Shown: positions 8,700-54,896 of the stretch, in pieces
How the letters are laid out: each line of letters opens with the position of its first letter
How positions within the stretch are numbered: position 1 is the first letter of the stretch
Notes under the pieces: model-generated
Told to the model about the DNA's origin: nothing
What the model saw: only the letters and a program-made list of their open reading frames with translations
Databases searched by the model: none
Made by a program: the position numbers and the translations under genes
Origin: an uncultured bacterium
GTDB lineage: Bacteria; Omnitrophota; Omnitrophia; Omnitrophales; Aquincolibacteriaceae
DNA: 64,000 nt
Direction of reading: 5' to 3'
NCBI GenBank assembly: GCA_964434115.1
Contig: CAYSSX010000011.1
Span: 3,605 to 67,604, forward strand

Positions 8700-10379
8700 T
8701 TAGTCCGAATGCCGGTCTTCATGATGAAGCGTTACAACAATACGCTTCACGAAGCCTTGCTGAATAATCGAAAGGACGTTATTGAGGAACCAATAAAGCA
8801 CTAGCCCGGAGGGCATGTTGTAAAAAATGAATCCGAAAATGAGCGGCATGAACGCAAACACTTTTTGCTGCTCGGGAGAAACCCCTGTCTGCGGCGTCAT
8901 CTTCTGCTGCACCACCATAGATGCAATCATAAAGAGCGGGAGCAGATTAAAACTGTCGCCAATGACTGGGAGAGAAAACGGAAACATGAAAAGCCGGTCG
9001 GGTTCCGCAAGATTGTGGATCCATCCCAGAAAGGGCGCTCCCTTGAGCTCAATCGCTTCATTCAAGACCTGATAAAAAGCAATGAAAATGGGGATCTGAA
9101 GAACCATCGGCAGGCATCCGCCCATGGGGTTCACGCGATTTCTTTTGTAGAGCTCCATCATTTCTTTATTAAGCCGCGCGGGGTCGCTCTTGAAACGCTC
9201 CTGAAGTGATTTGAGCTTCGGCTGAATCGCCTTCATTTTTTCCATAGATTTATAACTCATGTGCGTAAAGGGCGCGAAAAGAAGCTTGAGAATTACCGTC
9301 AAAAGGATAATGTCCCAGCCAAAGTTGTGTGTAAAGCGGTGGGACGCCTTGAGCGCTTTAAGAAACAAAATTTTAAGAGGTCCAAAAAAGCCCCGGGAGA
9401 GCATATTCTCAAACCCCACGTTAAAGCTCGCGAGGGTTTCATATCTTTGCGGCCCGGCATAAACGAAAACTTCTTTGCGAACGGTCTCTCCCGCGGGAAT
9501 GGAAAGGGGTTCCATGCGAAGCGTGCTCCACAGAACCGGCTCTTCCGACCGGCCTTCCACGGCTGCGGTTTTCCATTCTGGTTTCAGAAGAATGGCAAAA
9601 TATTTTTTTACAACGCCAGCCCACTCCACGTTCTCTGATAAGTGAAACCCTTTTTTAGAAACATGTTTCATGTCGGCGGTTGTCGCCTTGCCATTCCATG
9701 CAACAATACTGAACTCGTGCGGGTTTTGCTGATGCGAGAGATGATCCGCGTGAATTCCCGCGTCAAACTCGAGCGGAATTTGCCGGGTTTCGGAAGATAG
9801 ATTTTCCAGCGCAACATCAAGGCTGATGATTGGCTCCGCATGGCTTAAGACAAAATGCTTGGTCACTCTAAACTGGCCGGGCTTTTCAAACTGAAAGATG
9901 ACCTCATCGCGGTTTTCACTGCCTCCGATAACGCGAAACATGGCGCGGGATAGGTCTACGGGCTCTTGAGAGATACGAAGCGTCAAAAGGCCGGGCTCGA
10001 AGGGCGCTCCGTCAAAAAGGGTGTTCCGGGTCACTTCCTGCCGCCCGGAGTCTCCTTTGTAAATGAGCTTTGTGACGGATCCTCCGCGCGTGGAAAACTC
10101 CGCTTCATAGAGTTCATTTTCAAAACGAATGATTTCTGGTTCAACCAGGGGAGCATCGACTCCTTCGGGCTGAGGCTTTTTCGCGCGAAGATATTCGTCG
10201 TGCGGACGCCCCTCATCAAGCTTTGGGGGTTGCTCGGTTTCAGTGCTTGCCTCCGGCTGAGGCGCAGGAGGATACATAAGCTTGAGAACAAACGGGTAGG
10301 CCAGCATGACGGCCATGGACAAAACCAGCGCGAGTAAATAGTTTTTTTCGTTCTTGGGTTCAGGATTCAACGGGATCAT
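8700..10379 (-). CDS. yidC: Membrane protein insertase YidC
   Basis: 559 aa with a large periplasmic domain followed by the conserved C-terminal multi-TM region. It sits in the rpmH-rnpA-yidD-yidC context. Confidence 0.85.
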
Positions 10380-48393: not shown

Positions 48394-49479
48394 ATGGTGG
48401 ATATCGTCATCGTCACTTATAATGCGCGGTCCGAGCTCATGAAATGCCTTGAGTCGGTCCGGCGTTATACGCCCGCTTCAATGTATAAATTATATGTTGT
48501 TAATAATGCCAGCAGCGACGGCACCCGCCAATATCTTGATCAAACCCGCCTTGTGAATGGTCAGTTTTTTCATCTTCCCCGGAACCTTGGGTTCTCGGGT
48601 GCAGCCAATTGGATAATCCCAAAGCTAAAATCGGCAGACGTAGTTTTTTTGGATGACGACGCCAGGGCCACCCCAGGCTGGCTTTCCGGGCTTGTCCGTT
48701 CGGTGAAAAAATCAAAAAAAACCGGCATGGTGGGCTGCAAGATTATTTATCCAGACAAAAAAATTTTTTCGTGCGAGGTTCGGTTTGGGCCGAGAAGAAT
48801 CTTATTTTTTAAAGACAGGGACCTGGGGCAGGCCGACTACGTTAAAGAAGTGGATGCTCTGGCGGGTGCCTGCTTTCTTGTCCCGCGAAAGATTTTGAAA
48901 AAAATAGGCCCCTTTGACGAAAGTTTCTTTCCCTGTCAGGGAGAAGACTGGGATTATTGTCTTCGAATCCGGAAAGCCGGCTATAAAATTATCTACAATG
49001 GCAAAGTAAGTATTATTCACAGTAATCTTTTCCGTGCGGGCGGCGAAAAAGTAAATAAAGAAAACAAAACCCGGTTCTATGAAAAGTGGAATGCGTATCT
49101 TGCTAAGCACTTTCCGCGCAAAGACAGCCACTTTGCAGACAGACTTATGTCGAAAGCGATTGCCGCGCTTGAGGCCGGCGACAGCGAAAGGGCCTTAAAG
49201 ATCTCCGGCAAGCTGGCCAAGAGCCGCCCCGAACTTGTTGAGCTGTGGGTTCCCGCGCTTGCCTATATAAGACTTCAAAATTTCAAGAAAGCCTTACCGA
49301 AGTTAAAAGAAATTATAAAAAGGAATCCGGATAACTATTCCGCACGGAGTTACCTTACCCTCTGTTTGCGCAGCCTGGGGATGAAGGGCGAAGCGGAGGC
49401 GTACACGGAGAAGATGCTTGCCTGCGTCACAAAGAACATAGACAAAAAAAGAGCCGCCGTTTCAAGGGGCAAACCTTGA
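48394..49479 (+). CDS. GT2 glycosyltransferase with a C-terminal TPR-like helical domain (SunS-like architecture)
   Basis: N-terminus: MVDIVIVTYNARSELMKCLESV...NNASSDGT...VVFLDDDA (GT-A fold, DxD). C-terminal ~110 aa have TPR-like repeats (AIAALEAGDSERALKISGKLAKSRPELVELW...LQNFKKALPKLKEIIKRNPDNYSARSYL). Confidence 0.7.
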   Translation: MVDIVIVTYNARSELMKCLESVRRYTPASMYKLYVVNNASSDGTRQYLDQTRLVNGQFFHLPRNLGFSGAANWIIPKLKSADVVFLDDDARATPGWLSGLVRSVKKSKKTGMVGCKIIYPDKKIFSCEVRFGPRRILFFKDRDLGQADYVKEVDALAGACFLVPRKILKKIGPFDESFFPCQGEDWDYCLRIRKAGYKIIYNGKVSIIHSNLFRAGGEKVNKENKTRFYEKWNAYLAKHFPRKDSHFADRLMSKAIAALEAGDSERALKISGKLAKSRPELVELWVPALAYIRLQNFKKALPKLKEIIKRNPDNYSARSYLTLCLRSLGMKGEAEAYTEKMLACVTKNIDKKRAAVSRGKP

Positions 49480-50537
49480 GCATACAACCGCTGAAGATAG
49501 AGCCTGTTTTCATTATGAGCTCAGAGAGATCAGGCAGCAATTTGCTCCGCGTGCTGCTTTCAAATCATCCGAACATTCATTCGGCGCCGGCCCCGCATTT
49601 TTTGAAGATTTTCCACACCATAATCTCATCTTATGGAGACCTGTCGGATCGAGGGAACGTCGAAACCCTTTTTTTTGACATGGCCAATTTTGTCAGTGAC
49701 GAGGGGACCGCGTGGAACACGAAGTTCGACTTCAAAACGCTCTATGAAGAGTTCAGGCCGAAAAGCTTTCTGGACTGCTTCCACCTTTTTTACACGGTAA
49801 ACACCCGCGAAAGCGGGAAGCAGAGATTTGTTGTGAAAGAAAACAACCTTTTCGATTTTGCTTTCCAGCTTGTTCATTATTATGGATCGCCTAAGTTTAT
49901 ATACTTGTACCGGGACCCGAGAGACTATGCCGCATCCTGGATGCGGCTGTCCCACAATACCTTAACGCCCTATGCGGCCGCGGTAAGATGGGCGTACGAA
50001 CAGGAAAAGTGCCTTGAGCTGATGGATGGATTCGGTCTAAAGGCTTTTCCAGTTAAATACGAGGAGTTGATTACAGATACGGCTCAGGTGATGAGTGGTG
50101 TGCTCCGGCATCTTGAGGAGCCGGATACCGATCTTTGCTGCCAGGTAGACACCCGAAAAACAGCGTGCTTTGCCTGGAACGAGAGCTGGGCCAACATCGC
50201 GCAGCCGGTCCTCAAAAACAACAGCGGCCGATACAGGTTTTTTTTGAAGAAAAAAGATATCCTGATCATTGAGAGTGCGGCTAAAGCGCCGATGCTGAAA
50301 CTGGGGTACGCGTTAGAAACCCGGGCTGACTGGAAACCTTCCATGGCGTTCCGGTGGACAGAGAAGGTGCGCGGCAGAATAAAGCGCTTTCAGGCTTCAG
50401 TGAATCGAAACAGAACAAAGGATTTCTTAGACATGAAAAAAAATCTGGTGGAAAGCATCCGCGCGCGGCAGCGTGGTTTGGCTGACAGCAGCGCCTCCCG
50501 CGGCGGGACTCGAAATCCTGGCGGAGGGAAGGCGTGA
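49476..50537 (+). CDS. Sulfotransferase-family protein
   Basis: PVFIMSSERSGSNLLRVLL is a 5'-PSB-like motif (P.F.I.G..RSGTT) and RDPRDYAASWMR is 3'-PB-like. The start overlaps the upstream stop. Confidence 0.65.
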   Translation: MSIQPLKIEPVFIMSSERSGSNLLRVLLSNHPNIHSAPAPHFLKIFHTIISSYGDLSDRGNVETLFFDMANFVSDEGTAWNTKFDFKTLYEEFRPKSFLDCFHLFYTVNTRESGKQRFVVKENNLFDFAFQLVHYYGSPKFIYLYRDPRDYAASWMRLSHNTLTPYAAAVRWAYEQEKCLELMDGFGLKAFPVKYEELITDTAQVMSGVLRHLEEPDTDLCCQVDTRKTACFAWNESWANIAQPVLKNNSGRYRFFLKKKDILIIESAAKAPMLKLGYALETRADWKPSMAFRWTEKVRGRIKRFQASVNRNRTKDFLDMKKNLVESIRARQRGLADSSASRGGTRNPGGGKA

Positions 50538-51517
50538 TTAAAAAAATATTCACGACAGCTTACCTGCGTATTGAACTTCAAACAAACTCCCGCCAGGTTG
50601 CAGCTCTGTTAAGCCGGTCGATGAGTTTTGGCGTCCGGCCGGAGAAAAGCGCCGTGAAAATTTCCTTCTTTATTACGCACGTCCCCAAATCAAGTTTTGG
50701 AGATGGCGATTATTCCTACCACCGCTTGCGCAGCAGGGAAGGGATCGCCACTCGCCTTCATCATGGATGTTTGGCCTCAGTGTCGGTTGATGAGAAAAGA
50801 ATGAGGGTTACGGGTGCGGTTTATGATTTGAAAGAAAAACACCATCCGCGTCTCGCTCAAACACTTTTTATCGACCCCCTTATTCAGCTGCTCAGCCTTC
50901 ATGGCTACCAGTTTCTCCACTGTGCACTGATCGAGAAGGGCGGCGAATGCGTTCTTGTATCGGGGCCGTCTGGAAGCGGTAAGAGCACCCTGTCTTTAGC
51001 CCTTGCCATGCACGGAGCAAAGCTGCTGACCGACGACAAGTGCCTTTTTAGATTTAACCCGGAAGGGGGCTGTACATTTTTGGCGATGCGGCAAAGCATT
51101 GGTGTTCAGCCGCATCTCTGGAGAAAATTTTCAGCGATAAGAAAATTTCCTTCAGAAATCGATTGTGACGGCAAGCGAAGGCGTATCCCGGCAGACTCTT
51201 TTGGGAAACAGTCCGCCGATCAATTTAAGTTTGCCCCCAAGGCGATTCTTTTCCCGAAGTTCAGAAAAGGCGGGAAGGTTAGAATGAAAAGCCTTTCCGC
51301 CAAAGAAGCACTTAAACGTCTGTGGGCCGACAAAAGCAATGCCTGTAATGCGGGGCGAAACAAGAAAAGTCTTAGCGAAGCCCTTTTCAGCCTTCATCAG
51401 CTGACAAAACAAACCCCGGCTTACCAGGTTTTTTATAACGATCCAGAGGTTGGAAAAATCGGAAGCCTTGTGGAGCCTTTGTTTGCGGGCCGCGGCCAGT
51501 TTCATGAATCCCGGTAA
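50534..51517 (+). CDS. HPr-kinase-like (HprK-related) P-loop kinase, the third in the locus
   Basis: FLHCALIEKGGECVLVSGPSGSGKSTLSLALAMHGAKLLTDDKCLF. GTG start overlapping the sulfotransferase stop. Confidence 0.6.
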   Translation: MIKKIFTTAYLRIELQTNSRQVAALLSRSMSFGVRPEKSAVKISFFITHVPKSSFGDGDYSYHRLRSREGIATRLHHGCLASVSVDEKRMRVTGAVYDLKEKHHPRLAQTLFIDPLIQLLSLHGYQFLHCALIEKGGECVLVSGPSGSGKSTLSLALAMHGAKLLTDDKCLFRFNPEGGCTFLAMRQSIGVQPHLWRKFSAIRKFPSEIDCDGKRRRIPADSFGKQSADQFKFAPKAILFPKFRKGGKVRMKSLSAKEALKRLWADKSNACNAGRNKKSLSEALFSLHQLTKQTPAYQVFYNDPEVGKIGSLVEPLFAGRGQFHESR

Positions 51518-52700: not shown

Positions 52701-52715
52701 ACTTTGCAAGTTCAT

Positions 52716-52789
52716 GCGCCCGTAGCTCAACTGGATAGAGCATCTGACTACGGATCAGAAGGTTAGAGGTTCGACTCCTCTCGGGCGCA
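52716..52789 (+). tRNA. tRNA-Arg (anticodon ACG)
   Basis: GCGCCCGTAGCTCAACTGGATAGAGCATCTGACTACGGATCAGAAGGTTAGAGGTTCGACTCCTCTCGGGCGCA. Cloverleaf with anticodon loop CT-ACG-GA, 74 nt. Confidence 0.85.
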
Positions 52790-52855
52790 TATTTATTAAG
52801 CCCTAACCAGAAGGAACTCTTCTGGTTATTTTTTTGCGAAAAGGCAGAGGCCCGA

Positions 52856-53350
52856 ATGAAAAAAACCCCCCAGGATCTCCATGAGCATTTTATGCTGGAA
52901 GCGCTGAAGCAGGCGCAAAAGGCGTTTGATGCCGGCGAAGTTCCCGTGGGGGCTGTGATGGTTTATGAGAATAAGATTATTGCCCGGGCCTATAATCAGA
53001 TGGAGCTGCTGAAAGACCCCACCGCGCACGCTGAAATTGTGGCCATGACACAGGCCTCCGAAACACTTTCCCATCAGAATGAAAATCATCGCGGTTCCCT
53101 TGAAAATGCCACGCTTTATGTGACCCTTGAGCCCTGCCTGATGTGTTCGGGAGCGCTGATCAATACGAAATGTAAAAGCCTGGTCTATGGAACACCGGAC
53201 CCTCGCGCGGGAGCGTGCGGCAGTCTTTACAATGTGGTTCAGGATGACAGGCTGAACCACAGGCTTCAAGTCACGAGCGGTGTTTTGGCTGAGGAGTCCA
53301 AGTTTCTTCTCAAAGAGTTCTTTCGGACGCTGCGCAAAGAACAGCGGTAG
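52856..53350 (+). CDS. tadA: tRNA-specific adenosine deaminase TadA
   Basis: 164 aa. HAEIVAM and LEPCLMCSGAL, the CDA-fold zinc ligand motifs (H-A-E / P-C-x-x-C). Confidence 0.85.
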   Translation: MKKTPQDLHEHFMLEALKQAQKAFDAGEVPVGAVMVYENKIIARAYNQMELLKDPTAHAEIVAMTQASETLSHQNENHRGSLENATLYVTLEPCLMCSGALINTKCKSLVYGTPDPRAGACGSLYNVVQDDRLNHRLQVTSGVLAEESKFLLKEFFRTLRKEQR

Positions 53351-53513
53351 AATCAAACCAGAGCTTGATTCTTTCGGATAAAATTGATTAAATGAACCCT
53401 CTTTGACCTCCCCGAAGGACTGGAGGAGGATCTCCCGGGTCTTCTTAAGGAAAATCCCGTCTTTATTTTCAAGGCGCCAAGCAGCTTGTGTGCAGGCTCA
53501 TTGAGTTCATTTT

Positions 53514-53603
53514 GGAGAGGTCGCATAGCCCGGTCGAGTGCGCTCGCTTGGAAAGCGAGTAGACCGCAAGGTCTCAAGGGTTCGAATCCCTTCCTCTCCG
53601 CCA
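53514..53603 (+). tRNA. tRNA-Ser (anticodon GGA), with encoded CCA
   Basis: GGAGAGG acceptor, anticodon loop TT-GGA-AA, long variable arm, T-loop GGTTCGAATCC, 3' CCTCTCC-G-CCA. Confidence 0.8.
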
Positions 53604-53652
53604 TTTCCCCAGCCTGTCCTTTCTGGCAGGCTGGGGGAGTTCTCTGAAAAAG

Positions 53653-53941
53653 GGATTCGAAGCCGACCCAAGCGCCGTAAGGATGAAGCGAGGGCGGCCG
53701 GCTTCGGAGGAGGCCGCTGACAAGCGGACGGGGGAGAAGGAATCCCGCATTCATCATTCATCCTCATTTTTCGGCAAGGTTTCATGAATTGGATTCGAAG
53801 CCGACCCAAGCGCCGTAAGGATGAAGCGAGGGCGGCCGGCTTCGGAGGAGGCCGCTGACAAGCGGGCGGGGGAGAAGGAACCCCGCATTCATCCTCATTT
53901 TTCGACAAGGTTTCATGAATGCCGACCCGAGCGCATTTTTA
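53653..53941. repeat. Tandem direct repeat of unknown function, ~138-bp unit, 2.1 copies, between tRNA-Ser(GGA) and the ABC exporter
   Basis: Copy 1, 53653-53790, begins ggattcgaagccgacccaagcgccgtaaggatgaagcgagggcggccggcttcggaggaggccgctgacaagcgg. Copy 2, 53791-53920, is near-identical but 7 nt shorter. A truncated third start, tgccgacccgagcgc, lies at 53921-53935. Confidence 0.8.
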
Positions 53942-53957
53942 ACCGTACCCCCGCTTA

Positions 53958-54896
53958 GTGACCATGACCCCAGCCATAGCCATACAAAACCTGACCAAAT
54001 TTTATAAACAGTTCAAAGCCCTCGACGGTGTTTCTTTTGAAGTTGAACCGGGAGCCTTCTTCGGCTTTTTGGGCCCCAACGGTGCGGGCAAAACAACCAC
54101 CATTGGCGTTTTGACCGGGCTTGCCAACTTTCAGACCGGGGATGTCCGAGTTTTCGGCCATGACGTGAGGTCCGGGTACCGGGAAACGCGGCGTCTCATT
54201 GGACTGGTTCCGCAGGAGTTTAATTTTGATCCGTTTCTTTCCGCGGAGCAGATTTTGACTTTTGAGGGCGGATATTTCGGCCTGCCCAGGGCAGAAGCGA
54301 AAAAGCGCGCGCATGAACTCCTGAAGGTCTTTGACCTTTGGGAAAAGCGGACCGGGAACTATAAGAAACTTTCCGGGGGGATGAAGCGCCGGCTTTTAAT
54401 TGCCCGGGCCCTTATGCACAGTCCTAAAATCCTGATCCTGGATGAGCCCACGGCCGGGGTGGATCTCGAACTTCGTCATCATCTCTGGGATTTTCTGAGG
54501 AAGCTCAACGAAAAAGGGACCACCATTTTTTTGACAACACATTATATCGAAGAAGCGGAAAAACTTTGCAGCCGGATCGGCGTTATCCATCAAGGGAGCA
54601 TGGTTGCTCTTGATAACACCGAAGTGCTGATTCAAAAAATGGCAGGCGATCAGGTGGAGCTTTATTTTAAACGGCCCCTCCAGGCTCTCCCGGAGCTTCT
54701 AAAAAAACTCCCTGTTTTTCTTGAGGAAAACGGAAGCCGGCTTCGCTTTGAAGAGAAACATCAAATCGTTTCCGCCGTGCTGAAAATTCTTCATGACGAA
54801 AAGCTTGAAGTGGATCGGCTGGACGTGCGGAGGCCGACCTTGGAAGACGCCTTCCTGAAGCTTGTCGCAAAGGGAAACGGAGCGATTAAAGTATGA
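53958..54896 (+). CDS. ABC transporter ATP-binding protein (ABC-2 exporter type)
   Basis: Walker A GPNGAGKTT, signature LSGGMKRRL, Walker B ILILDEPT. Confidence 0.85.
   Translation: MTMTPAIAIQNLTKFYKQFKALDGVSFEVEPGAFFGFLGPNGAGKTTTIGVLTGLANFQTGDVRVFGHDVRSGYRETRRLIGLVPQEFNFDPFLSAEQILTFEGGYFGLPRAEAKKRAHELLKVFDLWEKRTGNYKKLSGGMKRRLLIARALMHSPKILILDEPTAGVDLELRHHLWDFLRKLNEKGTTIFLTTHYIEEAEKLCSRIGVIHQGSMVALDNTEVLIQKMAGDQVELYFKRPLQALPELLKKLPVFLEENGSRLRFEEKHQIVSAVLKILHDEKLEVDRLDVRRPTLEDAFLKLVAKGNGAIKV

Follow-up and report, generated by a model that had tools for sequence, protein, structure and literature searches.

A structured, GC-rich element family located behind tRNA genes in Omnitrophota and a few other uncultured bacteria

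Introduction

Miniature non-autonomous elements and small intergenic repeats of bacteria include MITEs and the Correia, ERIC and REP/BIME sequences, and in E. coli a small RNA, 3'ETS-leuZ, is cut from the 3' trailer of a tRNA. Most genomic islands at tRNA genes (tDNA islands) leave a 3' fragment of the gene, many of them at the T-stem region, and tandem arrays occur as well (PMC4383910). In addition, the phage GIY-YIG nuclease SegB cleaves tRNA genes internally at RAWTSGAAC, a motif that corresponds to the T-arm bottom strand, and drives recombination-dependent tandem amplification (PMC13096335).

Here, we analyzed a tandem repeat behind a tRNA-Ser gene in a 64-kb stretch of DNA from a member of the Omnitrophota (the window). 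The Omnitrophota are uncultured, and to our knowledge their non-coding RNAs and mobile elements are almost wholly undescribed. The repeat unit is one copy of a previously undescribed family of structured, GC-rich elements of ~105 nt, which unite a covariation-backed fold, a 5' end complementary to the T-arm and a 3' copy of the neighboring tRNA end, features that are not normally combined.

Results

A tandem array between tRNA-Ser(GGA) and an ABC operon

The tRNA-Ser(GGA) gene of the window lies at 53514..53603 on the + strand and encodes its CCA (ARAGORN; Rfam tRNA, 54 bits), and the interval between this gene and the downstream ABC operon contains two full repeat units of 138 and 130 nt and a 14-nt stub. 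The original prediction had placed a tandem duplication at 53653-53941, behind the tRNA and before the operon, and both the repeat search and blastn confirmed it. The repeat search of the window returned the pairs 53653-53755 / 53791-53893 (103 nt, 98%) and 53755-53789 / 53886-53920 (35 nt, 97%), which are in register at spacings of 138 and 131 nt, and a third piece of 14 nt, GCCGACCCGAGCGC, at 53921-53934. When unit 1 was compared with the window by blastn, unit 2 was the sole match (E 4.8e-53), and neither blastn nor the covariance model revealed a further copy in the 64 kb. Global alignment of the two units gave 3 substitutions, a 7-nt indel (ATTCATC) and a 1-nt junction difference, with ~98% identity outside the indel, which bears out the earlier claim of a recent duplication whose units differ by this indel and a few substitutions. 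The array call is based on the repeat search together with blastn and global alignment, since Tandem Repeats Finder did not list the array in the window. An independent short-read Logan assembly of the same organism (L001, SRR16481186) begins within unit 2 and is identical onward, as expected for an assembly that breaks in a real repeat.

All parts of the array are on the + strand. The body of copy 1 (53652..53746; covariance model 126 bits, E 6e-34, and pair counts) comprises block A, GGGATTCGAA, at 53652-53661, helix P2 at 53662-53669 with 53692-53698, the joiner CGGCTTCGGAGGAGG at 53699-53713, the P3 hairpin at 53714-53727, the joiner GGGGGAGAAG at 53730-53739 and the 3' strand of helix P1, GAATCCC, at 53740-53746. 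It is followed by a tail and spacer at 53747..53789, assigned from the sequence and alignments, in which the tail GCATTCATC[ATTCATC]C, with its 7-nt internal duplication, precedes TCATTTTTCGGCAAGGTTTCATGAAT. The body of copy 2 lies at 53790..53884 (117 bits, E 3e-31), starts with T instead of G and has GAACCCC as its P1 3' strand, and its aligned tail and spacer (53885..53920) are free of the 7-nt duplication. The third-copy stub GCCGACCCGAGCGC (53921..53934), which is the P2 5' strand plus the start of block B, is followed by ATTTTTAACC; it was delimited by the repeat search, the sequence of the relative L002 and nhmmer, and its junction with ATTTTTAACC is shared with L002. A promoter and terminator scan of the repeat detected nothing.

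Two long minus-strand ORFs, of 133 aa (53507-53908) and 134 aa (53353-53757), stay open across the repeat and run antisense to the tRNA, and gene callers may annotate them as a repeat protein. Both are artefacts, as had been suspected for the repeat-protein ORF (53507-53908), which is to be rejected because it is antisense to the tRNA and homologous element copies contain stops or shifted frames in all six frames. The six-frame comparison of copies revealed no conserved ORF, and a composite six-frame peptide query for spurious ORFs over other element copies gave no match. The element thus accounts for both a spurious gene call and an assembly break.

Directly 3' of the tRNA, a 10-bp hairpin, CCCCAGCCTG/CAGGCTGGGG (53607..53636, + strand; inverted-repeat search and L002 sequence), is perfect, is not followed by a U run and is kept in L002 with changes in the loop only; it may be a processing or termination signal of tRNA-Ser(GGA). 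Downstream of the array, the gene of an ABC-2 type transporter ATPase (53964..54896, + strand), which is a neighbor of the element and not part of it, heads the gene run ABC / permease / CorA / RlmN. We placed its start at ATG 53964 because this form is present in a public record (P0001); ABC and TadA proteins with GTG or other starts matched no public record. At ~20-30 nt upstream of the start codon, ATTTTTAAC / ATTTTAAAC is kept in all relatives (window 53935-53963; L002 2966-3010; L020 2455-2500) and probably serves as the -10 region of a promoter that belongs to the operon, and in L002 the element stub (CTTGAAG) occupies the position of a would-be -35 box. Upstream, the gene order tRNA-Arg(ACG) / tadA / tRNA-Ser (window 52715-53603) is recurrent across Omnitrophota and is also found in L002, L014, L017, L019, L024, L026, L027 and L035, with tadA (tRNA adenosine-34 deaminase) directly adjoining the gene of its substrate tRNA-Arg(ACG). 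The gene before this block (window 50534-51517; L002 1-812) matches PF27840 (ScmC), with a weak HPr-kinase C-terminal match in L002, and an ORF beside it (49476-50537) is sulfotransferase-like by eye.

Members of the family

A scan of 185,579 species genomes with a 20-mer from the unit center, GGCCGGCTTCGGAGGAGGCC, gave eight matches. One of them was an Omnitrophota contig (L012), another was a divergent copy (L007) that was recognized by the covariance model only (64.8 bits), and the other six were chance matches in GC-rich genomes. With a two-block pattern, a metagenome scan gave five further distinct loci (L014, L016, L017, L018 and L019), and the family comprises the window and these seven other loci in public genome and metagenome collections. 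The hosts are Omnitrophota and a few other uncultured bacteria, and the element body is GC-rich even within the AT-rich hosts L016 and L007. All members have in common GGGATTCGAAGCC, (R)AGCGCC, CGGCTTCGGAGGAGG, a variable hairpin and GGGGGAGAAGGAATCCC.

Tandem arrays are found at three to four loci, with at least three units in L016 and a second, degenerate copy in L014; the arrays at L016, L018 and L014 fit the expansion tendency that had been proposed as a repeat-expansion hotspot. Among the contigs examined, there is one element locus per contig, which in every case lies 3' of a tRNA or carries a tRNA-like tail. The family is therefore position-specific, and in these contigs neither a genome-wide dispersed repeat nor numerous scattered copies of the MITE/REP kind were seen. 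Rfam has no family that matches the unit: over the window and the seven loci, Rfam 15 in gathering mode passed the tRNA alone, and in E-value mode there was no credible overlap, the best match, CC3552 on the minus strand, reaching 27.8 and 26.3 bits where the threshold is 50. Twister, HDV-like, hammerhead, SRP, tmRNA and tRNA-pseudogene candidates were dropped by eye for unfitting helix topology or conserved cores, and the Rfam models were silent on them. The phage, plasmid and viral collections gave no match, either to blastn (phages and plasmids) or in two pattern scans of viral contigs.

Two of these loci have further contents. In L018, a different GC-rich body of ~140 nt (body A, 9863-10003) lies upstream of the canonical element and is framed likewise by tRNA end and spacer on both sides; it contains a GGCGGAGAAGGGAGCCC block, a stretch at its 5' side is complementary in part to the tail, and it may represent another family that inserts in the same way. 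In L012 (4522-5614), small accessory genes, with one weak DUF5678 match, surround the element behind tRNA-Pro(CGG), a nearby ORF without a Pfam match is retropepsin-like by eye, and after the tail there is a 33-aa fragment resembling BrnA/CopG antitoxin by eye, which suggests a variable region.

A fold supported by covariation

Besides the 5' block A (GGGATTCGAA), each member has two hairpins in which substitutions compensate each other, as well as a pair of purine-rich joiners that are invariant. Three helices are supported by covariation, namely P1 (GGGAUUC/GAAUCCC), P2 (GCCGaCCC/GGGCGGC, with a bulged A) and P3, which occurs in the variants CCGCU/AGCGG, CCUGGC/GCCAGG, CCUGAC/GUCAGG, CUUGC/GCAGG and CCGAC/GUCGG, and the fold also holds an inner G-C/A-U pair and a two-pair hairpin. 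The complementarity gggcggccggcttcgg / aggccgc pointed out in the original prediction is not among them; covariation favors GCCGaCCC/GGGCGGC, CCGCU/AGCGG and GGGAUUC/GAAUCCC. We evaluated 22 proposed pairs on a MAFFT alignment of ten copies with 500 shuffles. The pairs were 94.9% paired, against 26-54% when the partners were slid by 1-3 columns, changes on both sides occurred in 8 of the 22, and the covariation score of 0.302 (0.130 in shuffles) was exceeded by none of the 500. Adding L007 in a model-fitted alignment, which leans towards the model, gave 95.7% paired and 10 covarying pairs. The element thus shows compensatory substitutions beyond controls, as structured non-coding RNAs generally do. 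For P1, the covariation (GGGGAAUC/GAUUCCCC) comes from one sequence only (L007), and it could arise from copying both ends off the same T arm.

RNAalifold independently recovered P1, the closing helix, and P2. Single-sequence folds were only weakly better than shuffles (z -0.7 to -3.0, one +1.5) and favored another register for part of P2, in which UUCGAAGCCG/CGGCUUCGGA pair and a GGAGAAGG-tail hairpin is formed. As this fold excludes P1 and outer P2, a two-state fold is possible, with block A predicted to pair with either the tail or CGGCUUCGGA. The GGAGAAGG-tail hairpin precedes a U run in L019, L014 and L018, where the predicted structure looks like a terminator, and the U run is absent in L012, L016 and L007. 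G-U and A-C exceptions were balanced, so the pairs do not distinguish the folding strand, or RNA from single-stranded DNA.

Relation to tRNA genes

Wherever the tRNA is visible, the copies lie downstream of it on the same strand, and at loci with upstream sequence the element starts 13-49 nt behind the tRNA or behind an earlier array unit. The adjoining tRNAs are Pro(CGG) in L012, Ser(GCT) in L014, L017 and L019, Ser(TGA) in L018 and Ser(GGA) in the window. The element opens with 10 nt (11 in L007) that are reverse-complementary to the T-loop and the first T-stem bases; in the window, an inverted-repeat search found the T arm TTCGAATCCCTT of tRNA-Ser(GGA) to be exactly complementary to 53650-53661. 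At its other end, at the loci outside the window with a visible tRNA, GGAATCCC is followed by a copy of the T-stem 3' strand, acceptor 3' strand and discriminator of the adjoining tRNA. This tail copy, which covers 17-18 nt of the tRNA, runs from T-loop position 57 to the discriminator and sometimes into the flank, and it matches the adjoining tRNA at 17/17 positions in L012, L014 and L019, 16/17 in L018 and 15/17 in L017. No such 3'-end repeat was found behind element-free tRNAs of the same loci.

A cognate fragment in the sense of Islander is thus present in L012, L014, L019, L018 and L017. The window tails, GCATTCATCC, do not match the adjoining tRNA-Ser(GGA), the defining tail feature being seen at the other loci only, and these tails look like a tRNA 3' end, for which a putative source tRNA would end in CCCGCATTCATCC. 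When the window tail was compared with the 3' flank of tRNA-Ser(GGA) as a decayed version of it, the similarity was not significant (p 0.4-0.7).

The flanking duplication is variable, from 17 to 84 nt, and extends 0-66 nt beyond the tRNA end. In L018, for example, two different bodies are bracketed by an 84-nt repeat that comprises the tRNA end plus 66 flanking nt. The intervals at these loci are 110-230 nt. In the element-free L035, the native flank matches the post-tail flank of L017 (score 42 vs 14.6 +/- 3.0) and shows no match to the spacer behind the intact tRNA of L017, a pattern that is the signature of insertion at the T-loop with a supplied replacement 3' end, which is familiar from islands in tRNA genes (PMC4383910). 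No recombinase, integrase or integrase remnant was found near any copy, the neighbors being housekeeping genes (Pfam). The bodies of L012 and L019 are nearly identical, yet the tail comes from tRNA-Pro in the former and from tRNA-Ser in the latter, which simple site-specific integration does not explain.

Position and conservation suggest that the element is transcribed and functions as RNA. In L012 and L019, spacers of 13 nt are too short to accommodate a promoter, so the element there is presumably co-transcribed with the tRNA.

Distribution and selection

Homologues of the ABC protein assign the window to Candidatus Omnitrophota. In L002, the closest relative (ABC 87% identical), the order tadA / tRNA-Ser(GGA) / ABC / permease / CorA / RlmN is that of the window, with an intergenic region that is ~250 nt shorter. 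This region reads GGGACTTGAAGCCGACCCGAGCGT and then ATTTTAAACC, so that the unit's initial 24 nt adjoin the sequence found behind the stub in the window. The best explanation for L002 is that an array like that of the window collapsed between its short direct repeats, rather than that the site was never occupied. In L005 (79%), the initial 27 nt of the unit and a few further fragments persist. Both stubs were recognized by nhmmer profile search (E 8e-5 for L005 and 0.012 for L002), and L020, L024 and L025, which have the same tadA-tRNA-Ser(GGA)-ABC synteny, show no trace of the element. Because six same-synteny relatives have no element (L020, L024 and L025) or only a stub of 24-27 nt (L002 and L005), the transporter-leader reading fails; intact members elsewhere precede unrelated genes. 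From the original suggestion of a cis-regulatory RNA or sRNA in the transporter leader, the folded non-coding element survives and the tie to the ABC operon does not: the element belongs to the tRNA gene. Over all contigs, the element is absent from L020, L024-L029, L035 and L036, and this includes L026-L029, L035 and L036, with TadA 75-84% identical to that of L014.

Using the orthologous loci L014 and L017, conservation can be compared part by part: the body is 96% identical, the tRNA 95.5%, the spacer 68%, the downstream sequence 46% and tadA ~76%. Two of the four differences in the body form one compensatory G-C to A-U swap. Since the body is conserved far beyond the spacer and tadA, we take it to be under purifying selection. 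Over 620 nt, five additional assemblies of the L014 species are identical and exhibit no polymorphism in copy number or presence. Judged from these sequences, the element is both maintained and mobile.

GIY-YIG mini-cassettes at the same sites

In sister lineages, a mini-cassette with a single GIY-YIG gene of 80-83 aa is found at two element-type sites, tRNA-Ser(GCT) before the TPR gene and tRNA-Ser(GGA) before the ABC operon. The cassettes lie at 2114-2540 in L027 (~420 nt; also in L028 and L029) and at about 1565-2000 in L024 (also in L025). GIY-YIG genes were detected by tblastn in L024, L025 and L027-L029 only, and the two cassette proteins are 48% identical. In L027, a 13-nt repeat of the tRNA end (CCCAGTCTCTCCG) comes after the cassette, and the flank beyond it is as in the empty L026. 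A profile search for homology between cassette and element gave no significant similarity, with short motif resemblances only, and no GIY-YIG gene lies near any element copy, including those of the window. Block A, GATTCGAAG, fits the SegB site RAWTSGAAC at 8/9 positions, and the block of L007 is GAATCGAAG. Breaks in the T-loop followed by recombinational repair are a plausible route for both insertion and tandem copies. The 3' flank of tRNA-Ser is an insertion hot spot, which is occupied alternately by the element or by a GIY-YIG mini-cassette.

Discussion

We propose, with a probability of about 0.5, that the element is a non-autonomous, integrase-less insertion module at tRNA T-loops that is also expressed as a selected tRNA-trailer RNA. 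The module would enter a tRNA gene at the T-loop by recombination supplied in trans, either of the double-strand-break/homing type, for example by small GIY-YIG nucleases like those of the sister lineages, or by a tRNA-targeting integrase. It would supply a replacement tRNA 3' end, and the displaced end would become the tail. It would then be transcribed with the tRNA, within the 3' trailer, and fold into an RNA maintained by selection, in which block A pairs with the tail or with CGGCUUCGGA, the latter state allowing the terminator-like GGAGAAGG-tail hairpin. Tandem copies, as in the window, may result from unequal recombination between the repeated tails and spacers, which would also permit collapse to a stub of the L002 type.

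A possible, less favored explanation is a purely selfish DNA element or an integration scar without an RNA role, whose hairpins serve as folded single-stranded DNA or are bound by a recombinase provided in trans. Analogues of such hairpins are integron attC sites, the CTX phage attachment site and the ends of IS200/IS605. The direct repeats of the tRNA 3' end, the arrays, the patchy distribution with decay to stubs in L002 and L005, the GC-rich body in AT-rich hosts (L016 and L007) and the pair exceptions without a one-strand signal all agree with this explanation. However, a dead scar would not leave the L014 and L017 bodies nearly identical, with a compensatory change, between a diverged spacer and flank, and against selfish DNA stand the absence of recombinases near the copies and of matches in the phage, plasmid and viral collections. 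An integration scar at the tRNA gene, as once suggested for this locus, is part of the truth only: the tie to the tRNA stands.

It is unlikely, in our estimate, that the element is a self-targeting mobile RNA/DNA module or else a tRNA-mimicking switch. In the first case, block A may guide it to the T-loop and T-stem, with insertion at T-loop position 56/57; the guide of L007 may have been retargeted, towards a T arm with GATTCCCC, and copying of the local 3' end as the tail would leave the tRNA intact. In the second case, the element may couple tRNA 3'-end formation to read-through into downstream genes.

Improbable, too, is a cis-regulatory leader, such as a riboswitch or an attenuator, acting on read-through from the tRNA gene into the downstream operon, which here is the ABC exporter. 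Every copy is co-oriented with the next gene, and a leader would make use of the predicted mutually exclusive pairings (P1 and P2 versus UUCGAAGCCG/CGGCUUCGGA with the GGAGAAGG-tail hairpin) and of the U run behind that hairpin in L019, L014 and L018. Yet the genes behind the copies are not related to one another (ABC transporter, TPR protein, glmU-like gene, YdjM and acylphosphatase), orthologous ABC operons occur without the element, three loci (L012, L016 and L007) have no U run, and no Rfam family fits.

We give very little credence to a remnant of a large tRNA-integrated island or prophage that lost its interior and kept the right-hand attachment-site flank. An intact tRNA with a direct cognate 3' fragment from the T-arm region is the standard island signature (PMC4383910), but the same 5' boundary AAGGGATTCGAA, the ~95-nt body and the 13-49-nt spacers recur at independent loci with different tRNAs, repeated identical deletions are implausible, and an integrase remnant was not found near the copies. 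Finally, the near identity of the units and the 133-aa ORF open across them might suggest that ordinary intergenic DNA was duplicated locally and neutrally, or that the minus strand carries a genuine repeat-protein gene; this is refuted by homologues with covarying helices in unrelated contigs, the covariance model, the antisense course of the ORF through the tRNA and stops in every frame of other copies.

Depending on which of these descriptions applies, the element has different implications. If it acts as RNA, as in the insertion module with a trailer RNA that we favor, it would define a new class of selected tRNA-trailer RNAs. As mobile DNA, it would be the smallest tRNA-targeting insertion module described, and it would require a helper enzyme. 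If it is self-targeting, tRNA genes would be colonized in a structure-dependent manner without any protein gene.

Compared with known systems, the element has several shared and several distinct features. First, it shares with tRNA/tmRNA genomic islands (Islander; tyrosine integrases) an intact tRNA with a displaced same-strand 3' copy from the T-arm, the original flank after the fragment (L017 vs L035) and tandem arrays. In contrast to islands, its interval is 110-230 nt and not kilobases, it has no integrase or any other gene, its content is a conserved fold, the same body occurs with tails of different tRNAs, and its repeat can extend 0-66 nt beyond the tRNA end. Second, like MITEs and REP sequences, it is small, folding, non-coding, patchily distributed and without a gene of its own, and it has short terminal inverted repeats (GGGATTC / GAATCCC, the 7-bp P1). 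Unlike them, it is not dispersed, with one locus per contig that is always behind a tRNA or has a tRNA-like tail, its flanking duplication is long and variable instead of a 2-10-bp target duplication, and it has local covarying hairpins instead of a whole-length palindrome. We know of no parent insertion sequence of the element.

Third, the free-standing GIY-YIG homing endonucleases of the SegB type (PMC2330249, PMC13096335) share its site, the tRNA genes, and their recombination-dependent tandem amplification of short tRNA-adjoining segments resembles the element arrays. The GIY-YIG cassettes of the sister lineages share the two sites of the element and leave a tRNA-end repeat, whereas the element itself encodes no protein, and a nuclease would take part here only as a putative helper. 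Fourth, like sRNAs of the 3'ETS-leuZ type, the element lies directly behind a tRNA, where a promoter of its own would not fit, and at some loci its 3' end resembles a terminator. Beyond these sRNAs, it has a more elaborate conserved fold, a copy of the tRNA 3' end, mobility between tRNA genes and the ability to form arrays.
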